This document shows positions 2,845 through 64,000 of a stretch of DNA of 64,000 bases, one piece after another (the first letter of the stretch is position 1; each line of letters starts with the position of its first letter). The notes beneath the pieces are model-generated. The model worked only from the letters and a program-made list of their open reading frames with translations. It did not search any database and was not told where the DNA came from. This stretch comes from Patescibacteria group bacterium (GTDB lineage: Bacteria > Patescibacteriota > Microgenomatia > UBA1406), in contig JBAYJK010000004.1 in assembly GCA_041665145.1 (NCBI GenBank), positions 66,434-130,433 of the forward strand, given 5' to 3'. A program made the translations under genes and the position numbers.

Positions 2845-5800
2845 TCAGCGATAGGTTATTACGAGCTGGGGCGCTTGACTGACGTTTCCATTATACGTCC
2901 TAAAGACACGTCTGCCGGTTGCAAGACCAACGTTGGATGCGATGATTGACAAACTGTTCCCGCTATTCCAATCGCTTCTGTTTATGATTTCCTGAACAAT
3001 CGGCGCAAGGTTGGGAAGTGAGTACCATTGAGCACTCGTCCATGGCGCAGCAATGCTTGCATAGTACGTTGCAAGTGTGGAAGTTCGCGTAGCCGGTTTA
3101 TTTGTAGAGGAAAACGCCGCGCTATTTCCGGAAGCATCAGCGTATAGCGTGACAGTTGTGGCTGCGGTTTGGTTTGCGGTTGAGTACACCCTGAGGTACG
3201 CATCAACTATGGTTGCATTCCTGGGAATGGCAAGCCCGGTGAAACGGAATCCGGTATAGCTATTTGTTTCCGTAGTCGACCTTCCTAAATATGTGGTTGT
3301 TGCTGTCAAATTTAGTGTATTCACTACCTGCCGAGCATCATCATTACCCACGGCTATCGACTTGATCATTATCACACTACTATCTTCTTTTACTTCAACA
3401 TCATCTATGTACCAACCTGAGCCTGAAGTTCCATCATCAGACACCATTCTGAACCTGATGACCGCAGTATTACCAATATAAGGAGCAAGGTTGACAACAA
3501 CCTGTGACATTGTTCCCAACGTACCTCCGGTCCATGCACTCCTCAGATTAATCGCGCTTAATGTAGCATTATTTATTATTCCGTTATAAGCGCCTGAGGT
3601 AATTTGCGGACCTAAATCCACAAAGTTACTACCTCCGTCAATTGATATCTCAATAACCGCTCCATCTGCAGAAACTTCCGTCTGATATGTGTGCCTGAAA
3701 CTCAGTTTTCCATTTGCGGGAACAACAAATGGGCGCGTAGTAAGTCGGGAGTCTCTCGGAGTACTCACTTCAGCCGCAAAATAAGAATGCGTAGGACTAC
3801 TTGATCTTGATGTAGACAGAACCCAATCACTTGTTCCACCGGTAAATGATGAAGTCCATGTTTCGGAAACGGGATCAAAACTATCAGACAATACTGATCC
3901 TGCAGGAGGCGTCGGGGTGGGTGTTACTGTTGGAGTCATGGTTGGAGTAGGAGTAGCCGTAGGCGTGGGTGTTGTTGTTGGCGTAAGTGTGATTGTTGGT
4001 GTCGGAGTAGGTGTGCTTGTCTGTGTGGGTGTTGGAGTATTGGTTGGTGCTGATGTTACGGTAGGTGTGGGTGAGGCTGAAGGCGTTGGAGATGCCGAGG
4101 GAGTAGGTGTAATAGTTGGTGTGAGTGTAGGTGTGGGAGTAAACGCTGTTGTTGGCGTAAGTGTTATGGATGGTGTTGCCGAGGGTGTGGGAGTAACACT
4201 GTTCGATGGGGCCTGTAAAGTTGCCACTAAATCCTGTATGTAAAAATAATCTCCCCGCACAAAAGTGGGAGAGTCCAAATATTGGGCTAGTTCATCTTTG
4301 CTTGCATCCATAATCCAAGCTTTGGCAAGGAACATCGAATTTGTATCATAAAGCGGTGCGAGTATGGATTCACCGTATGAAGCTTCAAATCGGGAAGCCA
4401 TCCAGTAGGGAGCCGTATTATTGTACAGGTTGAACGCAGTGATTACATTCTGCGCACTTGCAGAATTTGTCTTCAAATATTGTGCTGTTTCCGGTGTCAG
4501 AAACATAAAGTTACGAGCAACAGCAAGTAATCTTCTCGAATCATGTGAATCCGGCCCCCAGGGAACATTTATTGTTTGCGCGAGATTCACTGCTCGACTC
4601 CGGGATCCGGTTGTAAGGTCGTTCAGGAGTGTCTGCTTCGCTGACGCCTCAGTTTGATTTCCGGCTAGCTTCGCAAGTTCTACATACCCCGTTAATCCGG
4701 CGATCCACGCGTTGTGTGCTTCTGGATATGTCAACAAAACACTATTTGTCGGAGGTGTCCCGAGACTAGATCTACACGCATTGAAAAGTGTCGTGGCATT
4801 CCCGCTGATTTGAGCATACTTCCAGAGTGCGTAAAACAAATGAGGAGGCCAACTCCAACCCGGATATCCATACATATCGGACTCGGAAGGTTGAAAATTG
4901 GGGATGACAGCAGTTACTTCCGGAGGCATTTCGACACCCGAATCCGTAACCCCGAGACTTTCTCGACTTGCCCCAACCCAACCGTTCGTGCGGTACGTAC
5001 AAGGAGAGTAATTCGACATTTCAGAAGACAAGTAGCTGAGAACTTGACTTTGTAAGTTTGAATTCAAATGCGGATACGCCAGTGTCAGTGTGTAGAGTGT
5101 ATCTATAGTACTATGAAAATAGTCCATAAAAACATCCCCGAAGTTGTAGAAAAAAGTTTCTGTGAAATAACCGTGTATGCCGTACCCCGGTCGCAAATGC
5201 CCCGCAGCAATAATTTTTTGCACTTCCGCTTCCAGTTTTTGTGTCAAGGTGTTTGAATCCGCAATCAAAGGGGTACCAGAAGCCTGACCAATAACCACAG
5301 GTGTCAATTCGTCTCTGGTTGGATTATTTGGTGCAAATGCAATTAGCGCGTTTCCTCTGTGCATATATAATCTTCCTTTGTAGGGAATCGGTGGATTAAC
5401 GTCTCCATGTGACCCGTAAATTCCATTTTGTCCTTCTGGTTGATTGTTCCACCCTGTGCCAGCTCTACTGTCCCCGTATACCATAACCGCATTTGACTCA
5501 TCCGTTCCGGTTGATTTCACATTATAATTTGGGGCGATTGATGCCAGGTTATATTCAAAGTACCACTGCTTATCGCTACCGTCCATTTTTGTCGAACCGG
5601 ACGCCCTATCACAGCAGAGATTCCAATATATTCTGTCTCCACCTGCAGAATAGGCCATCGGTTCATCGTTAGCCTGCATTGATGAGCCATATGGTGTAGT
5701 TATAAATGGGGTCCCATAATCCCAACCTACGATCTGCCCCCGAGTTGCATACTGTCCATTTACATAATATGTCTGAGCTTGATAAAGTTTTTGGTCAGCG

Positions 5801-10116: not shown

Positions 10117-10443
10117 TTATTTGTGTTGTTCGTTCATTTTCTTCCAATCCCATGAACGGGATTTATTGAAGTCGAGCTTTTTCAGAATCGCCGCTTCGAT
10201 GTCAATTCCCAACACGCCACACAAATGGAGAATCCGCTGAATCGCATCTCCCAATTCTTCTTTAAATCCGTCCTTACCATCAAAGTTCTGATGACGATAC
10301 GCTTCAAATGCTTCCGAAATTTCCGAATGGATAAGCGCAATTTTCTCAGGTACCGAGACATCTTCCGGCTTTATTCCAAAACCTTTTTCCTGTGCCTGTA
10401 GCATAATAAGATCAGAAAGTTCCTTGACTGTTAAGCTTTTCAT
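10117..10443 (-). CDS. MazG-like nucleotide pyrophosphohydrolase (intact paralog)
   Basis: 108 aa. 'EISEAFEAYR' and 'EELGDAIQRILHLCG' (EExxE/D-type metal motifs). Confidence 0.8.
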   Translation of the reverse strand: MKSLTVKELSDLIMLQAQEKGFGIKPEDVSVPEKIALIHSEISEAFEAYRHQNFDGKDGFKEELGDAIQRILHLCGVLGIDIEAAILKKLDFNKSRSWDWKKMNEQHK

Positions 10444-13130: not shown

Positions 13131-13193
13131 ATGGTCAATATTATCAAATTAATAGTAGAATAGAGAACGAGACATATTAATCCAATTAAACTT

Positions 13194-44252: not shown

Positions 44253-44281
44253 ACCACTGGAACAGCGAGAACAAATTCTCC

Positions 44282-44310
44282 TTGACAAGTGAACAATTGT
44301 TCACTATAGT
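44282..44310 (+). promoter_or_regulatory. lexA promoter (consensus sigma-70, leaderless geometry)
   Basis: -35 TTGACA (44282-44287), 17-nt spacer, -10 TATAGT (44305-44310), then 6 nt to ATG 44317. Confidence 0.8.
44289..44304. promoter_or_regulatory. SOS box (Cheo-type GAAC-N4-GTTC), perfect 16-bp palindrome GTGAACAATTGTTCAC
   Basis: Fills the -35/-10 spacer of the lexA promoter. Confidence 0.8.
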
Positions 44311-44316
44311 GGTCAC

Positions 44317-44895
44317 ATGCAAAAACAACTAGAGGATCGGTTATCGGCACTGAAAGATTTTTTTCATCACAGTAAGCGCTTACCAAGTTATAGTGAATTA
44401 CAAAAACTGTGGGACCTTGCTTCCAAGAATGCCGTATTCAAAGCAATTCACAATCTTATCGAAGAAGGTTTCTTGCAAAAAGATACACACAACAAACTTG
44501 CACCGACCCCGTTATTTTTTGCTCTCAACCTATACGGTCAGGTTCCTGCTGGTTTTCCGGTACCGACACCCGATGATCAGGCAGATGCATTGTCTCTTGA
44601 GTCGTACCTCATCGAAAAGCCCAGTGCGACATTTCTTTTAAAAGTAAGTGGAGATTCTCTGAAGGATCTCGGAATTCTCCCCGGTGACTTAGCACTTTTA
44701 GAAAAAACAAAAAACGCCCGACGCGGACAAGTTGTTCTCGCCCGGGTTGATGGGGAGTGGACATTAAAGATCTTGGCCAAGGATAAAAACAGATTATATC
44801 TGCAACCGGCAAACAGCAATTATGCTCCCATCATTCCAAAAAATGAGTTAAGCATTTATGGAGTGGTTAAGGGAGTGGTGAGAAAGTACATTTAA
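44317..44895 (+). CDS. lexA: LexA repressor (S24 peptidase)
   Basis: N-terminal winged helix. Cleavage site 'VPAGFP'. Ser/Lys dyad 'SGDSL' ... 'WTLKIL'. Confidence 0.85.
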   Translation: MQKQLEDRLSALKDFFHHSKRLPSYSELQKLWDLASKNAVFKAIHNLIEEGFLQKDTHNKLAPTPLFFALNLYGQVPAGFPVPTPDDQADALSLESYLIEKPSATFLLKVSGDSLKDLGILPGDLALLEKTKNARRGQVVLARVDGEWTLKILAKDKNRLYLQPANSNYAPIIPKNELSIYGVVKGVVRKYI

Positions 44896-44958: not shown

Positions 44959-44973
44959 TATTGCGCTCTCAAT

Positions 44974-45033
44974 ACAACTTACAGCTTGTAGCTTTAGACT
45001 TTATTACAACTTACACCTTACGACTTTCAACTT
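44974..45033. repeat. heptamer array, NNNNCTT units (x4, TATT, x4), the reverse complement of the left array
   Basis: ACAACTT ACAGCTT GTAGCTT TAGACTT / TATT / ACAACTT ACACCTT ACGACTT TCAACTT. Confidence 0.8.
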
Positions 45034-45039
45034 TATTTC

Positions 45040-46272
45040 ATGCTTCAATCCTATTCCTGGCCCACAGCAATTTTGCATCTTGATGGTAACGCCTTTTTTG
45101 CCTCTGTCATGCAGGCTGTCCGTCCAGAATTACAGGGAAAGCCTGTTGTCGTCGGAGCCGAGCGGGGTATTGCTACTGCCATTTCCTACGAAGCCAAAAA
45201 ATATGGTGTCACTCGTGGCATGCGCATGTTTGAAATCAAAAAGATATGTCCGCAGTGCGTGTGTCTTGAGGGAGATTACGAGCTCTTCTCGCTGTTCTCA
45301 AAAAGAATGTTTTCGTTTATGCGTCAATATTCTCCGGTTGTAGAAGAATATTCTGTTGATGAGGGATTTGCAGACATCTATGGACTCAGACGCCCATTGC
45401 ATAAAACTTATAAAGATATCGGCGCCTCACTACAGCAAGAAATTCAGAAAGAGCTTGGTATTCCTGTTTCGGTCGGAATTTCTCTCACCAAGAGCCTCGC
45501 GAAACTGGCAAGCGAATATAAAAAACCTTCGGGTCTCACGTTGGTTGAGGGCAGAGAGATAGAAAATTTCCTTAAGCACATCCGCATTGACGAGGTATGG
45601 GGCATTGGTCCAGCGACAAGTTCGTATTTACAAAAACTAGGTATTAAGACCGCTCTCGACTTTGTCGATAAACCTGAAACATTTGTCCATGAGCATCTGT
45701 CAAAACCATACTATGATATTTGGAGAGAGCTTCGGGGAATTCCTGTGTACGTTATAAATCCAGAGGCAAAAAATACATATAAAAGCATGAGCTCCACTGG
45801 AACCTTTCACCCCGCGACAAATGACATAGACTTTTTGTGGTCAGAACTACGGAAACATGTAGAAACGGCGTTTTCTCGGGCACGTAAGTACGGATATTAT
45901 GTAAAGCGCATGGGTATATTTCTAAAAACCCAACAATTCAGATACAAAACCGCAGAACTTATTTTTACCGGCAAACAACAATATCCACTATCCGTTATTA
46001 GTGACATACACAGATCTTTTCTTTCTATATACGATGCGCAAGATGTGTATCGCACTACTGGTTGTACTATCGCCGAATTTTCAGAGAACAGTATTGAGCA
46101 GGTTTCTTTGTTTGGAGAAGAAACAGAAATTAGGAAAGACAAAATTCAAAAAGTATATGCCGCGCTTGAAAAAGAAAAACAACACGTGGACTTTGGGACA
46201 AAGCTTTGGAGCAGAAATGCTGTAAGGAGCAAATCGTCAGCCCGTTTATCTATCCCCCTCTTGGAACTTTAA
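45040..46272 (+). CDS. Y-family DNA polymerase (DinB/UmuC-like translesion polymerase)
   Basis: 'ILHLDGNAFFASV', 'YSVDEGFADI', 'SVGISLTKSLAKLAS', 'VWGIGPAT'. Confidence 0.85.
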   Translation: MLQSYSWPTAILHLDGNAFFASVMQAVRPELQGKPVVVGAERGIATAISYEAKKYGVTRGMRMFEIKKICPQCVCLEGDYELFSLFSKRMFSFMRQYSPVVEEYSVDEGFADIYGLRRPLHKTYKDIGASLQQEIQKELGIPVSVGISLTKSLAKLASEYKKPSGLTLVEGREIENFLKHIRIDEVWGIGPATSSYLQKLGIKTALDFVDKPETFVHEHLSKPYYDIWRELRGIPVYVINPEAKNTYKSMSSTGTFHPATNDIDFLWSELRKHVETAFSRARKYGYYVKRMGIFLKTQQFRYKTAELIFTGKQQYPLSVISDIHRSFLSIYDAQDVYRTTGCTIAEFSENSIEQVSLFGEETEIRKDKIQKVYAALEKEKQHVDFGTKLWSRNAVRSKSSARLSIPLLEL

Positions 46273-55595: not shown

Positions 55596-56189
55596 TCAAA
55601 TAAAGGTTGGGGTACTCCGTTCTTTGACGAATCCGATACGTTTGTTTTTCGCAGTCATCATAATAAAATAGTTCAATGCTTTTCGATACATACCGACACC
55701 ATGCCGTTTTCTGCTTTCAATGTAGGCGATCCGAATACGTTTATACGACATGGGCAGCTTCTGAAAATTCTTCCAGGCATCGGGATTTGCTTTTAATGCT
55801 TTCAGAATTCCTTCCGAAATAACAAACGGTTCCTGAACAATTTTCTCGGGATCGTATACATGAGCAAGTGCTTTCAAACCGGCATCAGTCATGAGATGTT
55901 GTTCCATAAGCTCCCGTATTCTCTCTTTGTTCATCTGGGATAGCACACTGGTCGGTTTACGTGGCGAAAACCGTTGGGCAAATTTGGTGTCGTCAATTTT
56001 TTTACATATGCTGTCAATCCATCCGAAACAGAGAGCTTCCAAGACTGAATCGTCATACGATATCCGCGGTTTCCCGGAATCTTTACGATAGTAAATAAGC
56101 CAAATCTCCGATTCCGTGTCGTGGTGTTTCGCAAGCCAGTCATGCCAATCTTTCCGGGTAGTTATGTAGAGCGTTTTGCCAAGCAACAT
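55596..56189 (-). CDS. YdeI/OmpD-associated family protein
   Basis: 'ISYDDSVLEALCFGWIDS'. TACAAT (56201..56196) + 6 nt + ATG. Confidence 0.7.
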   Translation of the reverse strand: MLLGKTLYITTRKDWHDWLAKHHDTESEIWLIYYRKDSGKPRISYDDSVLEALCFGWIDSICKKIDDTKFAQRFSPRKPTSVLSQMNKERIRELMEQHLMTDAGLKALAHVYDPEKIVQEPFVISEGILKALKANPDAWKNFQKLPMSYKRIRIAYIESRKRHGVGMYRKALNYFIMMTAKNKRIGFVKERSTPTFI

Positions 56190-56216
56190 AGAATAATTGT
56201 ATCATCTGTCACTCTA

Positions 56217-56669
56217 TTATGAGGTGTGAAGTAGCCATAGATGCGTCAGGTATATTGTTGTTACAATTGAGACTACGGTAAGACACTGCCAATAGGTTTG
56301 GTATACAAAAAAAATGGCATTACTCTTAAGTAAGCCGTATCCCATCACTTTTTCGCAATACTTGTTGTCTTTCACAAATTGCTGGTTCATCCAATAAATC
56401 GTCTCGCCGAGACTGCGCACAATCCAAAATACTGAAACAATGAGCAGAAACAGTAGCCAATCATTAATATATAGCGAGATGAGGGAAGCAAGAAACCAGA
56501 AAAATCCGATGGTAAGCGCATCTCCCCACACAAATATTCCCATCCAAGACAATAATAATGTTTCTTTATAGGGATTCCTCTTTTTAATGGATTGATAAAT
56601 TCCTAAAACAAAAACCATTAACGATAAAACACTATACAAACCAACTACAATAGTCTGCCATAACTCCAT
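56217..56669 (-). CDS. membrane protein, unknown function
   Basis: About 5 TM helices. Start reassigned from 56729 to ATG 56669 (TATAAT 56681..56676 + 6 nt). Confidence 0.55.
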   Translation of the reverse strand: MELWQTIVVGLYSVLSLMVFVLGIYQSIKKRNPYKETLLLSWMGIFVWGDALTIGFFWFLASLISLYINDWLLFLLIVSVFWIVRSLGETIYWMNQQFVKDNKYCEKVMGYGLLKSNAIFFVYQTYWQCLTVVSIVTTIYLTHLWLLHTS

Positions 56670-56751
56670 ATTTTCATTATACAACGGATATTGGCCTAAA
56701 ATGTGCGCGCGTCGCTTGCATTTCTCCAAAATAGGCGACTATACTGGGCGT

Positions 56752-57138
56752 ATGTCGGTACAAGAAAAGGTTAAAAATATGCTTACATGGGGATTTGTAC
56801 TTTGGGTAACCGGGTACATCGCGGGATTTGTTCTGTTTTTTGTCGTTCCAAAAGACTATATTGGGTGGGTTATTACTCCCTTCGCAATATTATTCACTGT
56901 GTGGGTATTGTTTAAAAAAGTAAAACGGCCGGAACTTATGTGTTATTTTGGTACCGGATTAATTTGGACGCTTATGGCAATGATCCTGGACTATATCTTC
57001 ATTGTTATGCTTTTGAAGACCGGGACTTCGTATTACAAACCGGATGTGTTCCTGTATTACGGGCTCACGTTCCTGCTTCCGATACTCGTCGGGTACTGGA
57101 AATTCAAACATAAACTGCCAAAAGCTAAATTGTTCTAA
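56752..57138 (+). CDS. membrane protein, unknown function
   Basis: 4 TM helices. Start reassigned from 56701 to ATG 56752 (TATACT 56740-56745 + 6 nt). Confidence 0.55.
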   Translation: MSVQEKVKNMLTWGFVLWVTGYIAGFVLFFVVPKDYIGWVITPFAILFTVWVLFKKVKRPELMCYFGTGLIWTLMAMILDYIFIVMLLKTGTSYYKPDVFLYYGLTFLLPILVGYWKFKHKLPKAKLF

Positions 57139-57167
57139 ATAACTGAAACATCAATAATTCTGGAGCC

Positions 57168-57584
57168 CTACAAAACTAGGCCGGGTGATTTCTCAGCTAA
57201 TTTGATAATTATTTTTAAAGTATCCAAATTCAAATCTTCGAGTTTTTTGAAACGGATGCAACTTTTACCTACACTAACTTTCCCTAAATCATTCTTATAT
57301 TGTTCGGCAATATAGCCACCGGTATCAACTGCGCAAAGATACAGGCTTATATAATCTTTTTGACTTGCTATCGCGATGGTTGGCCAATCAAGCATTTCTT
57401 TTTTGTAGTTTTTATACTTAAAACTACCATAGCCGGGCATATTATAGAGAAAGTTCGGTTTAAGACTGGGGGCATTGGTCTTTATAAATTTATCCAAAAA
57501 TTCCAGTATCTTTCTCCGTTCTTCGGGAAGAGCATCAAAATATTCCTGACTCGACTTTGCTTTGACAGGTTTAAACATATTCAT
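57168..57584 (-). CDS. DUF1801 (YdhG-like) protein
   Basis: 138 aa. 'YISLYLCAV...GKSCIRFKKLEDLNLD'. Extended -10 TGaTATAAT (57596..57591) + 6 nt + ATG. Confidence 0.6.
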   Translation of the reverse strand: MNMFKPVKAKSSQEYFDALPEERRKILEFLDKFIKTNAPSLKPNFLYNMPGYGSFKYKNYKKEMLDWPTIAIASQKDYISLYLCAVDTGGYIAEQYKNDLGKVSVGKSCIRFKKLEDLNLDTLKIIIKLAEKSPGLVL

Positions 57585-57619
57585 AATCTGATTATATCAA
57601 GAGGCGCTTGCTGGTATTT

Positions 57620-58186
57620 TTATTCACCTAGTAGTTTCATTACTTGCTTGACTCGGGTTTCCGGTGTTCCGGAAACAACAAAGAAGTTTTTGGTACATGA
57701 GGACCCGAATTCACCGTAGTGTTTCTCTACTGCGTTGCGAAAGTTGTGATTAATAGGTCGGAAACCGTCATCTTCCAATTCCAAAACATTAGGGCAATAG
57801 ATAATGAAGTCATACGCTTTGGCTTCTTTTTTATTCAGTTCTTTCCAATAAGAGAGAGTCTTTTTGTCGTAACTATGGTTAAGATCTGGCCGCAGCTGTG
57901 AGTAACAGGCGAGGTGTGTAAATTGACTGAAAGCTGAATCTACGATGATTATTTCCGTGGATGCTTTCTCCACTTTTTCTTTTTGGTATTCATAGAATAT
58001 TTCCTGCAGTTGGAGAAATTCCGCAGGATCAAGGTGCCCTGTAGATTCTTTTTTCAGTTTCTTTCTCGTGATATCCCGGACATTCTCATCGATCTCCCAT
58101 GCCTTTTTGCCCATAAGTTTGCAAAGATCACGTGTCAGCGTGGTTTTGCCGGTACTGAATGTGCCGATTATTGCTACCTTTTTCAT
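57620..58186 (-). CDS. P-loop ATPase/kinase (AAA_28, NadR-kinase-like)
   Basis: Walker A 'GTFSTGKTT', 'IIVDS', 'LEDDGFR'. Extended -10 TGaTATAAT lies 7 nt upstream of the ATG. Confidence 0.55.
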   Translation of the reverse strand: MKKVAIIGTFSTGKTTLTRDLCKLMGKKAWEIDENVRDITRKKLKKESTGHLDPAEFLQLQEIFYEYQKEKVEKASTEIIIVDSAFSQFTHLACYSQLRPDLNHSYDKKTLSYWKELNKKEAKAYDFIIYCPNVLELEDDGFRPINHNFRNAVEKHYGEFGSSCTKNFFVVSGTPETRVKQVMKLLGE

Positions 58187-58261
58187 GTTCTAAATTATAT
58201 CAAAGAGTTTGAACATCCAGGACAGGGTATGAGAAAATTGAGACTAGAGTGATGAAGTTGC

Positions 58262-59341
58262 TCAGTTGGCTAGTTTTCTCTTTTTAAGTTTAACCACGCC
58301 AATCACCAAAATAAGTAAAACCACGCTTCCCCCGATGAAGTAAAACATTTTGTAATTTAGATTATTGTCTCTGGACGATTTTTGCCCAGTCGGAACACCG
58401 ATTGTTTGCCAACTTTTTTCTTCTACTGAAGTATCGAATGTCGTTTTTTCCGATAAACCGTTAACGGTGGCTGTCACTGACTCTCCTGACGCGACATCAA
58501 CACCGGTACCTGTAGCAAGACTTTCAAAATTAACCACACCCTCAATCACTTTAATCGTCGACTCCGATCCTGTCTCGGTCATGACAAACACTGTGCCTTT
58601 GATTCCGGCGACAGCCTGACTCATATGGCCTTCCATAGTCCCGTCTTTTATCATCTTTTTAACATTAACCCAAATATTCCCCGTTATAAGTTTCCACTTG
58701 GAATCTTTTTCAGGGGGAGTGTCTATGACTATTTCAGATTCCGCTTTCAGCTCAAATGTAGTCATATCGGAAAGTGAAATAACCGCTTTGCTGTCTTCCC
58801 CGGTTTTGATATGACAATCCACATAAATTACTCTACCCATCTTCATCACGTCCCAAGCTTCCAAGTCAGGAGGACAGGCAATTTCTACTTGGCCGCTTAA
58901 ATCGCTGACTCGAGCCCCACTGTCACGAGTCTCTGCATTTTCAGTCCATGCGTCAAAAATGGAAGGATCGGTAACGGTGAGCTCCATTGTTATTCCTTGC
59001 GTAGAAAACGTAAAGATTTTACCATCAGTCAGTTGGAACGTCAGCTTACTTCCCGAATCAGATGCAAATACAGCCTCTCCATGAGGTCCTCCCGTAAATG
59101 TTCCTTTCAGAAATAGTCCTTCACAATGTTCTCCGCCGGCTGTATCCACTGTAGTCATATCGCATACGGTGGTCAGCTCGGCATCTCCTCCAGTGTTTAC
59201 AAAATAAAGCGTACCTGTTCCACTAAACGAACCCTGGAAGGTAAATGTTCCCGTTGCTTCACCTTTGATCGACTCAAAAGCATACGCAGGAGAGGCAAAA
59301 ACGAAGAAGAACAGGAGCAATAGAAACGTTATCTTGCTCAT
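58262..59341 (-). CDS. secreted FecR-domain-like protein with C-terminal TM anchor
   Basis: Signal peptide. 'AVAGIKGTVFVM...IKVIEGVVNF'. C-terminal TM 'FYFIGGSVVLLILVIGVV' followed by KLKKRK. Confidence 0.55.
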   Translation of the reverse strand: MSKITFLLLLFFFVFASPAYAFESIKGEATGTFTFQGSFSGTGTLYFVNTGGDAELTTVCDMTTVDTAGGEHCEGLFLKGTFTGGPHGEAVFASDSGSKLTFQLTDGKIFTFSTQGITMELTVTDPSIFDAWTENAETRDSGARVSDLSGQVEIACPPDLEAWDVMKMGRVIYVDCHIKTGEDSKAVISLSDMTTFELKAESEIVIDTPPEKDSKWKLITGNIWVNVKKMIKDGTMEGHMSQAVAGIKGTVFVMTETGSESTIKVIEGVVNFESLATGTGVDVASGESVTATVNGLSEKTTFDTSVEEKSWQTIGVPTGQKSSRDNNLNYKMFYFIGGSVVLLILVIGVVKLKKRKLAN

Positions 59342-59418
59342 AGTTAAGAATATTATACATTCAGAGAAGGAAATTAGTAGAAATTGAAGTTCTTCTTGCT
59401 TCCGATTGAAACTTTCTT

Positions 59419-59457
59419 TGCTCCCACTAGTAGACTTGTCCCGGAAGAGAGAAGTTA
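59419..59457 (+). repeat. intergenic repeat copy 1 (diverged core)
   Basis: TGCTCCCAC-N16-GAAGAGAGAAGTT. Confidence 0.6.
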
Positions 59458-59493
59458 AGTTAGACAGATTTGATTTTGATAAAATCGAAATAG

Positions 59494-60315
59494 ATGAAAG
59501 TACTTTTACTTGCAGATTTGCACGTTGGTGAGTCGAGGGAATCCACTACTCACCTTGGAATAATTCGACAGGCAAATTCAGATTCATTAAATTCCTTAGA
59601 GAAGTTAATTCCTCTATTTAATACTAAGAATTATGATGCAATTTTTCAAATGGGTGACTATATAAGAGAGGTAAAGGATCACGAAAAAAATCTTATTACG
59701 TTTGCAAACTACGCTTCAGTTATCGCAAAATTAACCCCATCAGTAATTAACATTCTTGGAAATCACGATCTACTAGCTTTTCCCTTAGAAGAGACGAGTC
59801 AATTATTTCTAAAAAGGAACTTGATCACTAATTTCTTTGGTGTAAAAAAGTATGATTCGTTTCAGATTGTTTGGCTTGATTTTGAAAGAAACCAAGGCAA
59901 TGAGACAATTCTTTCGTCGGAACGATTAAATTGGCTGGAAAAAGAAATTGACGCTAAAATTCCGACAATTATTTTTACTCATTATTCAGTCATTCCACAG
60001 CAAACAACAGGAAACTTTCTCTTTGAGGAAAACCCGTCTGGAGCAACATATTCAAATAGCAAAGAAATTCTTAGAGCATTCTCTAAATTAAATACAAAGT
60101 TGGTGATTAGCGCACACAGTCACTGGATTGGTGTACAAGAAGTAAATAGCACACACTTTGCATCAGTCCCTTCATTCAGTGAGCATTTATTAATTTCAGA
60201 GGATGTTGAGAAGTGCCCTTCGGTATACTCCGAACTCTATTTAGAAAATTCCTCAATAATACTCAAATCATGGAGCGGGGAATTCTGCCTGTTTAATTTC
60301 GAACTTAAACTTTAA
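59494..60315 (+). CDS. calcineurin-like metallophosphoesterase
   Basis: 'LLADLHVG', 'QMGDYI', 'LGNHD', 'FTHY', 'SAHSHW'. Extended -10 TGaTAAAAT lies 8 nt upstream of the ATG. Confidence 0.8.
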   Translation: MKVLLLADLHVGESRESTTHLGIIRQANSDSLNSLEKLIPLFNTKNYDAIFQMGDYIREVKDHEKNLITFANYASVIAKLTPSVINILGNHDLLAFPLEETSQLFLKRNLITNFFGVKKYDSFQIVWLDFERNQGNETILSSERLNWLEKEIDAKIPTIIFTHYSVIPQQTTGNFLFEENPSGATYSNSKEILRAFSKLNTKLVISAHSHWIGVQEVNSTHFASVPSFSEHLLISEDVEKCPSVYSELYLENSSIILKSWSGEFCLFNFELKL

Positions 60316-60440
60316 TTTCATACGCCTTATAAAAGTACGAAATATCTGCTTCGGCCTTTAAGTCTTTTCGTGGAAAAACGTTTTCTAAATCTAATAGATT
60401 ATTTGCTCTAAGTACATTCCTCAAAAATCCCTCAACTAAA

Positions 60441-60767
60441 TCATTTTTTTACTTGTCCGTATTTATCAACACAATAACCTAACGCCGAACCTAAAATTAA
60501 AGTCATGATACTAATAGGAATCAGAGCCAGCGGTTCTTTCCAACCAATAAGTATTGCTGTAGGAAGTAACATAAGGAACGAAACTATTATTCCTTTTACA
60601 ATACCTGTAACTTTAAGACTAGTGTGAGCAATAAAAAAACCTGAGACAACCCAGAGAGAGAAAGCTGACAAATTAGCATCCCACGTTAGGTTTTGAAGCA
60701 TCATCGGGATTACGTCAATTATCCCTGCAAGGACTCCAAGCATAATCCCGAGTTTAGTTTTCGTCAT
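60441..60767 (-). CDS. small membrane protein
   Basis: 4 TM helices. TAAAAT (60779..60774) + 6 nt + ATG. Confidence 0.55.
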   Translation of the reverse strand: MTKTKLGIMLGVLAGIIDVIPMMLQNLTWDANLSAFSLWVVSGFFIAHTSLKVTGIVKGIIVSFLMLLPTAILIGWKEPLALIPISIMTLILGSALGYCVDKYGQVKK

Positions 60768-60816
60768 GGGAAGATTTTAAGCTATTTCTGAAGAAATTCA
60801 TAGAAATCCGTAGAAA

Positions 60817-60862
60817 TGCTCCCGCATTGGGACAGTACTTGAATAGAGAAGTGGCTAAAACA
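60817..60862 (+). repeat. intergenic repeat copy 2
   Basis: TGCTCCCGCATTGGGACAGTACTTGAATAGAGAAGTGGCTAAAACA. Matches copy 3 at 38/46 positions without gaps. Confidence 0.8.
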
Positions 60863-60864
60863 AT

Positions 60865-61422
60865 TTATTTAACTAACAAACTTTCCAGTCTAGAAAAAGC
60901 CAACCTATTTCTTAAATGAAATGAAAGCGCTTCCTCAAAAGAGCCCCATCTCTCTCCAAGAAATGTCATATCGAACGATCTAGATGGTCCGCTCAAATCT
61001 TCGGTCATACGGGGAAAAGCAAATAATTTAAATGGAGCATATGGTGAGTTAAAAATCGGAGCTGATCCTTTAGGAAACTCTCTTGATATGGTAAAACGTT
61101 CATCTCGTAATAATTGCTCATAAACTTGTTGAACGAATTTAAAACGAACATGTTTGTCTTTAGGACAAAAAAGTAAATCTATATCACCATATAGCGCTTT
61201 CAAATCTGCACTTGAGCCAACAGCAAGAACATGAAGAGCAGTGCTCATTGCGGTTGCAACTGATTGTGCATGTTGGAGAATAATTGCTAGACACAGTCTG
61301 TCTACTGAATCCAACCGCTCTAAGTAGTCTGGCTCTCTTACTTCTCCGGTTATATGGTAAGGCTTGTCGCTCTTTCCAAGTAAGAGTCTGGGGTCTTCGA
61401 CTTGTGTCATGAGTGCTATCAT
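60865..61422 (-). CDS. minimal Pol-beta-superfamily nucleotidyltransferase
   Basis: 'LAVGSSADLKALYGDIDLLF' (the GS...D.D motif). An alternative start is ATG 61410. Confidence 0.6.
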   Translation of the reverse strand: MIALMTQVEDPRLLLGKSDKPYHITGEVREPDYLERLDSVDRLCLAIILQHAQSVATAMSTALHVLAVGSSADLKALYGDIDLLFCPKDKHVRFKFVQQVYEQLLRDERFTISREFPKGSAPIFNSPYAPFKLFAFPRMTEDLSGPSRSFDMTFLGERWGSFEEALSFHLRNRLAFSRLESLLVK

Positions 61423-61461
61423 TATAGCATGAGGAGGGTACTAATACTCTAAACAGAAGTT

Positions 61462-61507
61462 TGCTCCCACAGTGGAATAGTGCTCGAATAGAGAAGTGGA
61501 TAAAAAG
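61462..61507 (+). repeat. intergenic repeat copy 3
   Basis: TGCTCCCACAGTGGAATAGTGCTCGAATAGAGAAGTGGATAAAAAG. Confidence 0.8.
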
Positions 61508-61512
61508 TTTTC

Positions 61513-61983
61513 TTACTCCCAAAGTTTTTCTGAATACTTGGGATACCTTAGTATAACTTCAATCTGTTTCTGTATTTCCTGAATGTCACCCTCATTTAAG
61601 GGAATAAAGTTATCATAAAATCCAGTCCCTCTGTCTGGAAGATATACGGATTCGGGAAAAGGTTGGTGAGGCGCTCCTAAAACACGGCCGAATATATGGT
61701 AATGCAGAAACGGTTTTTTTCCCTCTTTGTATGACCAGTTTCCCATATCCTGGTAATTTACCTTAACCACCTTAACTCCTTGAACATTCATTGCTTTTTC
61801 TAAAGCTTCTCCGGCAACCATAGATATTCTCATAAATTCTTTCGCAACAGCAGGGGAGAGCATTGTTCTATCGAGAACAGATACGTCTTTAACCCGAATT
61901 CTAATATGTCCACCTTCTTCTCGAGGAACAAATGGTCTTTCTTGTGATTCAACTATAAAATTGGGTGTTTCGTAGATAAACAT
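61513..61983 (-). CDS. HIT-like fold protein with variant histidine triad (H-Y-H-I-F)
   Basis: 'TPNFIVES...GGHIRIRVKD' and 'PFLHYHIFGR'. The third His of HxHxH is replaced by Phe. Confidence 0.55.
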   Translation of the reverse strand: MFIYETPNFIVESQERPFVPREEGGHIRIRVKDVSVLDRTMLSPAVAKEFMRISMVAGEALEKAMNVQGVKVVKVNYQDMGNWSYKEGKKPFLHYHIFGRVLGAPHQPFPESVYLPDRGTGFYDNFIPLNEGDIQEIQKQIEVILRYPKYSEKLWE

Positions 61984-62150
61984 TGAGTTTCAGTATAACA
62001 AAAGAATGTGCCTAATTATATAAGGTCACGCGAGCCCAAGCAATAGGGCATATTCAGACGAACTGACTGGGCAAGTTACCTGAAATGTCCAAGACTAACA
62101 AATAAAGAAGCAAAACGTTTTCTTGGGCTTAATCAAGTTTTCTCACTTTT

Positions 62151-62588
62151 TTAACTAACTTTCCTAACGCATACTGGTTCGTCCATGCCTTCTACTTGTA
62201 ATTGAAATCCGTCAATACCATCAACAATAGTTGCCTGGGGTCTATAGGCATAATAATAAGAGTGTTTAGCTTCACTTTGTTCCCACACTTGACCATTATT
62301 AAACTTAAATATTGCTCCCTGTTTAAAACCTCTAAAATCCGAAACTATTGAACCCTCAACAACAATGCTAACTTGCGTAACTTCGACTGGCTCGTCTACA
62401 CCCTCTACCTCCATTAAATAAGAGCCTAAACTACCTGCATATATCCGTACACGAGGACAATAGGCATAATGATATTTGTACTTATATTTACTTTGTTGCC
62501 ACACCTGCCCGTTGGCTAACTTGAAAATAACCCCATCATTATAACCAGCAAACTCACCATCTATTTGACTAATAATTTGTTGTGTCAT
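62151..62588 (-). CDS. hypothetical protein made of two tandem ~67-aa repeats
   Basis: The two halves align at about half of their positions: 'F.G...G.IFK..NGQVW.QS......Y.YAY.P...I.....L.VEG.DEPV.V..VS'. Confidence 0.6.
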   Translation of the reverse strand: MTQQIISQIDGEFAGYNDGVIFKLANGQVWQQSKYKYKYHYAYCPRVRIYAGSLGSYLMEVEGVDEPVEVTQVSIVVEGSIVSDFRGFKQGAIFKFNNGQVWEQSEAKHSYYYAYRPQATIVDGIDGFQLQVEGMDEPVCVRKVS

Positions 62589-62589
62589 T

Positions 62590-62829
62590 TTAATTTTCTC
62601 TGTCCTTCGGCGGATTGGGATCGCGCCTATTTATGGTATCTTTGCTACGGATTTGGCCATGTTGATCTTGGGTAACCAATTCTCCACCACTGTTGTTTTT
62701 CATAATATTTCGAGCAAAATCTTCAGCTTGCCGCTGAGTATCAAAAACACCCGCTGCTTTTGAAGCTCCTTCTCTCTTTGCTTTCCAGTCATTTCCCGTT
62801 GGGGAAACCCAGTAATTATTTTTTACCAT
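62590..62829 (-). CDS. DUF2188-like small protein
   Basis: 79 aa. 'WKAKREGASKAAGVFDTQRQAEDFARNIMKNNSGGELVTQDQHGQIRSKDT'. Confidence 0.6.
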   Translation of the reverse strand: MVKNNYWVSPTGNDWKAKREGASKAAGVFDTQRQAEDFARNIMKNNSGGELVTQDQHGQIRSKDTINRRDPNPPKDREN

Positions 62830-63889
62830 CAGAACTCACCTCCTTCTTTTGTTTCATCAAATTTGTAATTTTGTCTTCCCATTCTTCTGAATGGATAATT
62901 CTGTCTTTTTGCAACTTTTCGTTTAATATCTCAGCTTTAGTCCTTTTTGATAATTCTTCCCATTTTTCCCCAAAAACATATGTAGCATTACCGTAATAGA
63001 TACTTTCTAAAACAAAAAGACCTCTATTGGAAAATCCATGGATTATATACCCATGAAAACCACCTCTACCAATGGCACGAAAGTCTGGTTCATAGCCATT
63101 AATTGTTTCCAGGCGATATTCCAAAACAGGCCGATTTCCTTTTGGGGCCAGTTTGATCAATGGATCAAGATGTTTTTTAAATTGTTGCCAGGGCATTTCT
63201 CCTCTGGGAAGAATCTCCCAGTTCAACCGAACTACCGTTGTTTTAATAATTGAGTCGAATGTGTTGGTAAAAAATTGACATTCCCCGAAAAGCTCAAGAA
63301 ACAAATTAATCGTATGTTTTATTAAATTCTCATTTTCCGTGGTTTTTTGGTACGGCAATGAAACTAAAAGTAAATTACCGTCTTGATCCTCCGAAAAATT
63401 AAGCTCAATTCCCGGGGGAGGGTCGAACGAACGTGGATATCTTGGATATGGAATATCTACAATTTTTGATCTCTCAACCGTTTCGTAGCGGCCGGCCCAT
63501 TCTTTCCAATGCCATATGGCTTGGCGGTAGACAGTTTCCATCGGCTTATCTCGATGGACAATCTCTTTACCCTCAGCGTTATATGAACTTACAGGTCCGC
63601 TTCCTTTCGGTAACAAAGAATCACCTTTCTTAAAGGGACTCGGAAATCCGACGCTTTCAAGAATCAAAGCAAATCTTTCCGGCGAACTTATGCCGATAAT
63701 AAATTTGGAGCCTTCGGCTATGTGGCTGATATAGGGATATATGTTTCGAATACGTTTTTTTTGTATGATCATTTTCTTGTTTATATTTGTAACGGCCTCT
63801 TTCCGACAAAAAGAGAAATTGGTCGACGGCTGAATTGTATGAAATCTCTCATGAAAAGTCAAGTGGTCAAATTGTAATTTGATATACAC
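62816..63889 (-). CDS. hypothetical protein, no recognisable domain
   Basis: Long ORF. The start is uncertain (GTG 63889 or ATG 63772, giving 318 aa). The 3' end overlaps the next gene by 14 nt. Confidence 0.55.
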   Translation of the reverse strand: MYIKLQFDHLTFHERFHTIQPSTNFSFCRKEAVTNINKKMIIQKKRIRNIYPYISHIAEGSKFIIGISSPERFALILESVGFPSPFKKGDSLLPKGSGPVSSYNAEGKEIVHRDKPMETVYRQAIWHWKEWAGRYETVERSKIVDIPYPRYPRSFDPPPGIELNFSEDQDGNLLLVSLPYQKTTENENLIKHTINLFLELFGECQFFTNTFDSIIKTTVVRLNWEILPRGEMPWQQFKKHLDPLIKLAPKGNRPVLEYRLETINGYEPDFRAIGRGGFHGYIIHGFSNRGLFVLESIYYGNATYVFGEKWEELSKRTKAEILNEKLQKDRIIHSEEWEDKITNLMKQKKEVSSDGKK

Positions 63890-63921
63890 TTTGACATATA
63901 AAAATTGTGATATAATAACAA

Positions 63922-64000
63922 CATGTTACATAAAAACCAAGTAAAGATTTTGGAGCTTGCTAAAAGCATAAATCTTGCCGAACTTACTTTACAGGAAATT
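63922..64000 (+). CDS. partial gene (5' end only), possibly an HTH regulator
   Basis: 'MLHKNQVKILELAKSINLAELTLQEI'. Extended -10 TGaTATAAT (63907-63915) + 6 nt + ATG. Truncated by the window edge. Confidence 0.4.

Follow-up and report, generated by a model that had tools for sequence, protein, structure and literature searches.

Intergenic repeats of a Patescibacteria genome as probable orphan attachment cores of serine recombinases

A 64,000-nucleotide stretch of the genome of a Patescibacteria group bacterium (assembly GCA_041665145.1, contig JBAYJK010000004.1, positions 66,434 to 130,433; this whole stretch is referred to as the window) contains an intergenic repeat that occurs three times among small accessory genes. 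We conclude that these repeats are probably orphan serine-recombinase attachment (att) cores that bound inserted units, and that, on the sequence comparisons described here, the family of elements to which they belong is very likely tied to the C-terminal tail of a large serine recombinase (LSR). Throughout, the + strand is the forward strand of the window, which is opposite to the neighbouring genes; the copies are labelled c1, c2 and c3, and the left and right conserved blocks of the element block A and block B (Table 1). Read along the gene strand, the order is HIT-family hydrolase gene, 13 nt, c3, promoter and nucleotidyltransferase-like gene (unit 1), c2, unit 2, c1, and promoter and FecR-domain gene, and this order is the product expected of tandem insertion at a single site.

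A scan of the window with TGCTCCCRC-N15-GAAKAGAGAAGTKG gave exact matches at 60817-60854 (c2) and 61462-61499 (c3), and if a gap of 12-18 nt was permitted, 59419-59455 (c1) was also matched, via the identical loci L001/L002. In shuffled sequence there were 0.00 matches to the fixed-gap pattern, even at 3 mismatches. Pattern matches and alignments thus confirm the three positions listed in a first-pass annotation of this DNA, and the copies do share one orientation and all lie upstream of minus-strand genes. An nhmmer search of the 64-kb window, using a profile of all three, detected no fourth copy. The gapless alignment between c2 and c3 noted earlier was borne out and extends to 53 nt with 79% identity; the description of the copies as strictly intergenic is accurate for all three except that the c3 alignment touches a stop codon (61513-61515). 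The cores of c2 and c3 each follow the stop codon of the preceding gene at a distance of 13-14 nt, and block B of c3 starts 13 nt past the stop codon of the HIT-like gene. By contrast, the earlier statement that c1 has a diverged core has to be turned around: c1 is canonical, and c2 and c3 are the diverged copies. Specifically, c1 reads TTG CTC CCA CTA GTA GAC TTG TCC CGG AAG AGA GAA GTT AAG on the + strand, with the centre TCC-CGG-AAG at 59439-59447; its core, GTCTACTAGTGGGAGC…, matches the canonical form of the family, it is found at E 5.4e-9 (31.8 bits) with a hidden Markov model (HMM) of the family built from non-window copies only, and it also fits the frame-neutral search pattern introduced below. 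In c2, TGCTCCCGC (outer left block) and GAATAGAGAAGTGG (right block) are still present.

The window's exact consensus had no match in GTDB genomes or JGI metagenomes. These empty exact scans first suggested a genome-private repeat, a reading that was overturned by a spacer-free pattern, GCTCCC-N17-18-GAANAGAGAARTK, scanned on GTDB. The 81 matches to this pattern are about the number expected by chance, and seven of the loci hold real copies, eight in total as L069 has two. Four of these loci (L026, L058, L069 and L071) have Patescibacteria titles (Gottesmanbacteria, two Shapirobacteria and 'Patescibacteria group'), and three (L036, L076 and L081) are titled 'uncultured Gammaproteobacteria'; the flank of L076 is identical at 59/60 positions to that of Candidatus Gottesmanbacteria L026, and the Gammaproteobacteria titles are probably wrong. 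The frame-neutral pattern added 15 further true copies among 16 JGI contig matches. In total, ~25 homologues were found in other Patescibacteria (Gottesmanbacteria, Shapirobacteria and others), i.e. the copies in relatives for which the first-pass annotation had proposed a search do exist. Viral contigs gave no match in one DNA-pattern scan and one protein scan. In the real copies the spacer is conserved as CAAYTTCTCTGTTCC-KRAAYRYGTYTACTAG-NGGGAGC, the middle of which is present in c1 and absent in c2 and c3, and the conserved core from GCTCCC to RTTGA(GTTTGG) measures 40-48 bp. Tails also occur in tandem: L109 carries four within 1.2 kb, and L105, L106 and L069 carry two each. In other genomes the element adjoins a terminator hairpin (L069), other copies (L109) or unrelated genes. 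Separately, L076 has an Rfam match to a group I catalytic intron at 2889-3128 (53.2 bits against a gathering threshold of 50), at a distance of ~2.8 kb from the core.

On the + strand, the family encodes the peptide (W/L/M)-LPLV(D/N)xFRNREIEF(G/E)FSLxNIQTVFE…, and the long-tail copies have open reading frames (ORFs) of 33-46 amino acids, most of which stop after 33-37 codons. Among 19 distinct copies, the variation has a synonymous character: Leu is encoded by CTA, CTG, CTC, TTA or TTG (19/19), Arg by AGG or CGG (19/19) and Pro by CCN (19/19). In a coding test limited to 60 nt free of search-pattern constraint, 23.6% of the differing codon pairs were synonymous in the tail frame, which had 0 stops, vs 4-14% and 9-22 stops in the other five frames; in the spacer of the unbiased set, the corresponding values were 52.7% in the tail frame vs 4-31% in the other frames. 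In the window, c2 carries a TGA in the tail frame, and c2 and c3 are both frameshifted. Similarity starts sharply at G|CTCCC in all copies, and the preceding codon is TGG, TTG, ATG, GGG, AAG or TAG. Because of this abrupt edge and the variability of the codon, we regard it as a junction and not as a start codon. The junction codon is TGG in 6/19 distinct copies overall, including both of the recombinase remnants described next. We note that the TGG junction reads …GGGGGAGCCA on the opposite strand and resembles a CCA end, but searches there revealed neither a tRNA-like fold nor a known RNA family.

The link to a recombinase comes from L102/L106 and L104, in which the peptide is the in-frame C-terminal end of ORFs of 121-136 amino acids. 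The upstream part of these remnant ORFs aligns to residues 421-502 of a 533-amino-acid protein from a phage record (MT836653) with 40% identity (E 4e-17), and this protein has Resolvase, Recombinase and Zn_ribbon_recom domains. In both the L102 and the L104 remnant, the core opens the last ~35 codons. In the phage LSR, the equivalent tail comprises the last 21 codons and runs antisense to a tRNA-Glu gene, which is a typical overlap of att and int. The Patescibacteria remnants resemble this tRNA-overlapping integrase in having an att-encoded C-terminal tail at the corresponding position, immediately behind a …LxxPYD motif; they differ in that their tail is not antisense to a recognisable tRNA, tmRNA or Rfam RNA, and the target of the tail appears to be the core itself. 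Neither the tail peptides nor the recombinase remnants had a match in Pfam, NCBIfam or PDB sequences. Directly upstream of the 121-amino-acid remnant in L102, at 1689-2763, lies an IS3-family insertion element (an 84-amino-acid helix-turn-helix ORF and a 282-amino-acid rve-type ORF, judged from sequence), which apparently truncated the recombinase gene.

Sites with the appearance of recombination products are found in the relatives. L026, L101, L111/L116 and L076 have a left flank in common that consists of an AAA_33 kinase gene, its stop codon and 12 nt, followed by TCAATTTCTCTGTTCC. When L026, L101, L111 and L076, which are nearly identical strains, are compared, the left flank is identical at 59-60/60 positions, the first half of the core at 16/16 and the second half at 13-19/21, while the right flank is identical at 9-23/60, which is at chance level, and is unrelated. 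The cargo on the right side encodes WD40, Fic and AAA_14 proteins and no recombinase. Several copies of the family retain just the first ~13 codons of the tail. L016 and L071 display the mirror pattern of identity. As far as sequence can tell, this switch of flank inside the core is the signature of hybrid att sites, in relatives and outside the window. The layout at the HIT gene in the window (stop codon, 12-14 nt, core) equals that of the anchor gene in L026, L076, L101 and L111.

The edges of the units in the window recur in other genomes. The nucleotidyltransferase gene is rare, and its homologues lie in differing neighbourhoods. Compared with L003 (69% amino acid identity), DNA homology begins directly after the proximal end of c3, at ACTTYTGTTTAGA, and stops at the stop codon; L003 has the nucleotidyltransferase promoter without the element. 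In L016, a 693-bp contig with 76% amino acid identity, DNA homology runs from the core edge to the stop codon and includes the same promoter. Upstream of this promoter, L016 has both blocks with a different spacer that is one base longer, i.e. a canonical core at the orthologous nucleotidyltransferase-promoter junction (AACAGAAGT|TKG|CTCCC). Because the window and L016 still agree at 70% of four-fold sites vs 4/18 positions in the spacer, we conclude that the spacer was replaced and did not merely drift. In L017 (80% amino acid identity), the region upstream of the orthologous membrane-protein gene is conserved, the promoter-side half of c2 included, and the unit adjoins a decayed core. A more distant nucleotidyltransferase homologue, in the Patescibacteria contig L007 (49% amino acid identity), is flanked by a different direct repeat of ~85 nt (1003-1228 and 1769-1983) that contains a terminator-like hairpin and T-run (GAGGCTATTTTTRACCAAATYTTAGTTCGAA…GAATTTGAG).

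Among the roles that the first-pass annotation had suggested for the repeat, the scar of a cassette-type recombination site is therefore the best supported, on the basis of the homology to the LSR tail, the breakpoints in hybrid sites, the tandem arrays and the recurring unit edges. We suggest that the repeat is the ~45-bp att core of LSR mobile elements of Patescibacteria. Because the final ~35 codons of the recombinase begin with this sequence (…W-LPLV(D/N)xFRNREIEF…stop), the att site would lie inside the enzyme's own ORF. In the proposed mechanism, a recombinase dimer would bind two half-sites, with block A as the outer left half and block B as the right half, cut at a central dinucleotide near TTY-MGG-AAY and then swap partners. 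In this way, a circle with a matching core would be inserted, its ends would become flanked by two hybrid cores in direct orientation, and repeated insertion at one place would generate a tandem array. Cores would lie upstream of promoters because each inserted unit has its own promoter at the core-side edge. For the window, we infer insertion of the units by an LSR mechanism as well as the exact crossover base and any present activity of the sites. We also entertain a broader and rather doubtful idea, namely that Patescibacteria run an integron-like, LSR-based capture system in which promoter-bearing single-gene cassettes with a ~45-bp core are stacked in tandem just downstream of conserved genes and moved in trans by a recombinase that ends in the same core. 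In such a system, each integration would swap the last ~35 residues of the enzyme, and this tail swap could function as a built-in directionality or 'suicide' switch. A literature search returned no description in Patescibacteria of the att cores and recombinase proposed here.

Several observations weigh against att cores as the explanation of the window repeats. Both c2 and c3 go undetected by the family HMM made without window sequence. Relative to the family, ~20/23 positions of their blocks are kept vs only 2/16 in the 16 nt between, their blocks are 1 nt closer together, and the central TTY-MGG is lacking. If crossover took place at the centre, the promoter-side half of c3 would be expected to be like that of L016; instead it is like that of c2 (10/15). 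An extra event is consequently needed, such as short-patch conversion between copies 645 bp apart or local duplication. The differences between c2 and c3 are conservative in the + frame (Q/H, N/D, A/T, I/L), a signal that is weak with 11 differences and weakly hints that both are a diverged tail lineage; c2 and c3 are probably inactive or from a diverged lineage. As regards the enzyme, no intact recombinase gene with the tail was recovered, just the two remnants, one of them cut by the IS3-family element, and a look-up of exact-sequence clusters returned only fragments of similar length and no intact recombinase. No recombinase gene was found in the window and the adjoining 6 kb (~70 kb), and no recombinase domain in the scanned subset of ORFs of the window, namely those in the 20 kb that surround the copies together with ten larger ones from the remaining sequence. 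With no recombinase gene nearby, the sites in the window would be orphans that are either served in trans or fossil. A relative with conserved synteny was not found, as even the closest homologues of the HIT gene are at most 74% identical and have no neighbours in common, and the relatives examined include no empty site, for which reason we infer, and do not observe, the insertion of the two units. The exchange point maps only to ~17 nt ending GTTCC|K, since no family member varies in the first half of the core. This interval contains a small dyad, TTC-MG-GAA, apart from which the half-sites are nearly without dyad symmetry, with outer halves that are dissimilar in the alignment.

The same observations are the starting point for the alternative that the copies are recombinase debris combined with local duplication. 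According to this explanation, c1 is a decayed 3' end of a recombinase gene, c2 and c3 arose by duplication or conversion, and none of the copies was ever a junction or had a function. It is in line with the similarity of c2 and c3 over all 53 nt, including ~15 nt past block B, with the inner half of c3 being like that of c2 and not that of L016, with the failure of c2 and c3 in the family model and with the absence of a recombinase nearby. We nevertheless consider it unlikely. The decay of c2 and c3 is non-uniform, as described for the blocks and the 16 nt between them, and block B has been kept as DNA despite the broken tail frame. Moreover, the copies lie exactly at unit edges that recur elsewhere, with cores adjoining there too, and the arrangement of stop codon, 12-14 nt and core is the one seen at the hybrid sites of L026, L076, L101 and L111. 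Less probable again is a shared operator or activator site, which the first-pass annotation had put forward and according to which a factor binds blocks A and B at -50 to -110 and co-regulates the FecR-domain, membrane-protein and nucleotidyltransferase genes. Three copies in one orientation upstream of minus-strand genes, two conserved blocks with a variable spacer, and ATTTCT direct repeats that the neighbouring promoters also have in common would all suit an operator. So would the equal distance of c2 and c3 from the -10 box: the earlier estimate that the element ends 13-15 nt upstream of a -35 position holds for these two copies (36-37 nt from proximal end to -10 box) and fails for c1 (62 nt), which lies 25 nt farther from its promoter. 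Set against this are that conservation in the family tracks the codons of the opposite strand, that the neighbours vary elsewhere (the terminator hairpin in L069, its own copies in L109, unrelated genes), that the promoter in L003 is present without the element, and that there is no conserved palindrome or direct-repeat half-site. We therefore find the operator proposal unsupported, with a small residual probability for c2 and c3.

An independent small gene for a ~35-amino-acid protein (M/L-LPLVDxFRNREIEF…), antisense to the neighbours, would account for the short ORFs in the long-tail copies, for the ATG or TTG that precedes LPLV in about half of the copies and for the -10-like hexamers a few nt upstream in some of them. 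However, the other half of the copies have TGG, GGG, AAG or TAG at this position, the peptide is fused in frame to the recombinase C-terminal region in L102 and L104, several copies hold just the first ~13 codons, and the frame is broken in the window by the stop in c2 and the frameshifts in c2 and c3; with no Pfam or NCBIfam match in addition, a small gene is very improbable. We attach next to no weight to a small structured RNA or terminator-like element, although the repeat is short, conserved and intergenic and begins just past upstream stop codons. It folds no better than shuffled sequence, whether as the gene strand (z +0.6 to +1.2) or as its complement (z -0.1 to +1.2), no terminator-like site was found at the copies, RNAalifold on 12 members gave -0.12 kcal/mol, no covariation and 3 pairs, all of them invariant, and the element has no Rfam, tRNA or tmRNA match. 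The structured RNA suggested by the first-pass annotation is accordingly rejected, whereas its view that the repeat is neither a sigma-70 promoter nor a terminator (site scan) nor a tRNA fragment (ARAGORN and Rfam) was correct.

By analogy, the mechanism proposed for att cores is most like that of serine-integrase att sites and of tandem staphylococcal cassette chromosome (SCC) elements. In SCCmec, the Ccr serine recombinases insert the element at one chromosomal site, which is located within the 3' end of the conserved gene rlmH (orfX). SCC elements accrete in tandem with direct repeats of the integration site between them, and some units lack recombinase genes. The window units are alike in being tandem and bounded by repeats and in lacking a recombinase gene. 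They differ in that the family core lies 12-14 nt past the stop codon of varied anchors (HIT hydrolase, AAA_33 kinase), in that the units in the window are far smaller, with one or two genes in 0.6-1.4 kb, and in that the repeat mirrors the recombinase's own C-terminus. For A118 integrase, attP is 50 bp, attB is 42 bp and exchange takes place at the central 2 bp (PMC3556126). LSR att sites (A118, Bxb1, phiC31) are likewise short and self-sufficient, at 40-50 bp compared with 40-48 bp for the family core, likewise give hybrid products and lie beside or overlap the recombinase gene. By comparison, the family core lies ~35 codons inside the recombinase ORF, its chromosomal and element half-sites are identical (16/16) and not distinct as attB and attP, its dyad symmetry is minimal, and the family is known from sequence alone. 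A site within the recombinase gene is found in SSV1-type 'suicidal' integrases, in which integration splits the gene and leaves its fragments at the borders of the element (PMC8371274); a 2021 review describes this self-splitting arrangement as exclusive to Archaea and to tyrosine recombinases (PMC8371274). The L102 and L104 remnants share the location of the site within the ORF. Unlike the archaeal tyrosine enzymes, the homologue of the family is a serine recombinase, the hosts are Patescibacteria, and only the last ~35 codons would be exchanged, which a resident core-plus-tail could restore. Integron cassettes and attC sites, including arrays without an integrase (CALIN), are similar in forming arrays of small accessory genes with sites in the same orientation just after stop codons, and here too the recombinase may be absent. 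However, the imperfect palindrome of attC (R''-L''…L'-R') forms a hairpin, which the family element lacks, and integrons use the tyrosine recombinase IntI and promoterless cassettes, in contrast to a serine recombinase and units with their own promoters.

Patescibacteria have tiny genomes and no well-described route for the exchange of accessory genes. A conserved and readily recognisable 45-bp core would flag insertion points and island borders in thousands of metagenome-assembled genomes. If the site truly lies inside the recombinase ORF, the archaeal 'suicidal' integrases would have a serine-type counterpart in Bacteria. The system would also yield recombinase/att pairs for genome engineering, also in poorly tractable organisms. 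The case further suggests that conserved intergenic repeats near promoters should be checked for coding on the opposite strand before they are called regulatory.

Table 1 Repeat copies, bracketed units and neighbouring genes in the window
Feature	Position	Strand	Description
c1	59418-59463	+	near-canonical ~45-bp att-type core; match to family HMM
c2	60817-60869	+	diverged core; pattern match and alignment to c3
c3	61462-61514	+	diverged core; 53-nt alignment to c2 at 79% identity
HIT-family hydrolase gene	61513-61983	-	'anchor' gene, conserved across the Candidate Phyla Radiation; 350 homologues annotated HIT/Ap4A hydrolase
Unit 1 (c3-c2)	60865-61461	-	own promoter and nucleotidyltransferase-like gene
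Unit 1 promoter	box ACTTCTGTTTAGA at 61448-61460; TGCTATAAT, -10 at 61421-61426	-	conserved box
Nucleotidyltransferase-like gene	60868-61410 plus stop	-	181 amino acids; 13 homologues
Unit 2 (c2-c1)	59464-60816		membrane-protein gene and promoter, convergent phosphoesterase gene
Membrane-protein promoter	60788-60817	-	with ATTTCT direct repeats; within unit 2
Membrane-protein gene	60441-60767	-	108 amino acids; within unit 2
Calcineurin-like phosphoesterase gene	59494-60315	+	convergent; within unit 2
FecR-domain gene promoter	59352-59359	-	TGTATAAT; beyond c1
FecR-domain surface protein gene	58262-59341 (58262-59417 with promoter)	-	far side of c1

Each of the units has its own TGnTATAAT promoter (Table 1). 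In most genes of the window, TGnTATAAT or a close variant lies 7-10 nt before the ATG and a Shine-Dalgarno sequence is lacking (e.g. 59352-59359, 61421-61428 and 57590-57600), and leaderless mRNAs appear to be the rule in the source genome. The GC content is 0.38-0.39 at 56000-64000 vs 0.42-0.44 in the remaining window, a drop that fits an acquired accessory region. Direct repeats of ATTTCTAYNNATTTCY with a 10-nt period are located at 60788-60817 and 59365-59384 on the minus strand, with three exact matches as the only ones in the window; they span -40 to -20 of the membrane-protein and FecR-domain promoters, i.e. the usual place of a -35 element. The 16-nt ATTTCTACGGATTTCT is kept at 16/16 positions in L017, where four-fold sites are just 51% identical. 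From their sequence, these repeats look like a genuine promoter or regulator motif distinct from the att core.

Further candidate identities for the repeat were tried and rejected. At the copies there is no sigma-70 promoter or intrinsic terminator, the + strand TTGCTC-17-TNGAAT lacking the conserved A2 of a -10 box; by eye, the defining bases of sigma-54, extracytoplasmic-function (ECF) sigma factor and T7-like promoters are missing. No GC-skew switch of the kind expected at a replication terminus (Ter) site occurs at the locus. As a template repeat/variable repeat pair of a diversity-generating retroelement, the copies fail because their differences are not adenine-specific and there is no reverse transcriptase. 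An integron attC site was dismissed for lack of a hairpin and of IntI, and a tRNA-like 3' end for lack of T-arm or acceptor pairing together with the negative ARAGORN and Rfam results. A minus-strand coding relic (PLLYSST…) was also considered; the mod-3 pattern of 7 differences between c2 and c3 is not significant (~0.18 by our own count), and the + frame supersedes it. Finally, the LexA-type box of the genome, GAACAATTGTTC, is unrelated to the element, which speaks against a LexA/CI operator. In this connection, the promoter at 44270-44316 of an S24-peptidase (LexA-like) gene (44317-44895) consists of TTGACA-N17-TATAGT with the palindrome TGAACAATTGTTCA, similar to a Cheo/LexA box, in its spacer; a tandem 32-nt repeat at 44973-45036 lies just before a dinB-like gene at 45040, and a second S24-peptidase gene is located directly past the end of the window (L002, 14430-15041).

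Two other repeated sequences were noticed in the window. At ~13150-13175 on the + strand, AATAGTAGAATAGAGAACGAG is like the right half of c2 and c3 (AATAGTGCTCGAATAGAGAAGTGG) and lies in a divergent promoter region; it could be a solo half-site relic or a chance similarity. A ~320-nt repeat (1786-2103 vs 10118-10434, 76-77% identity) overlaps the ORFs at 1840-2283 and 10117-10443 and probably represents paralogous small genes.

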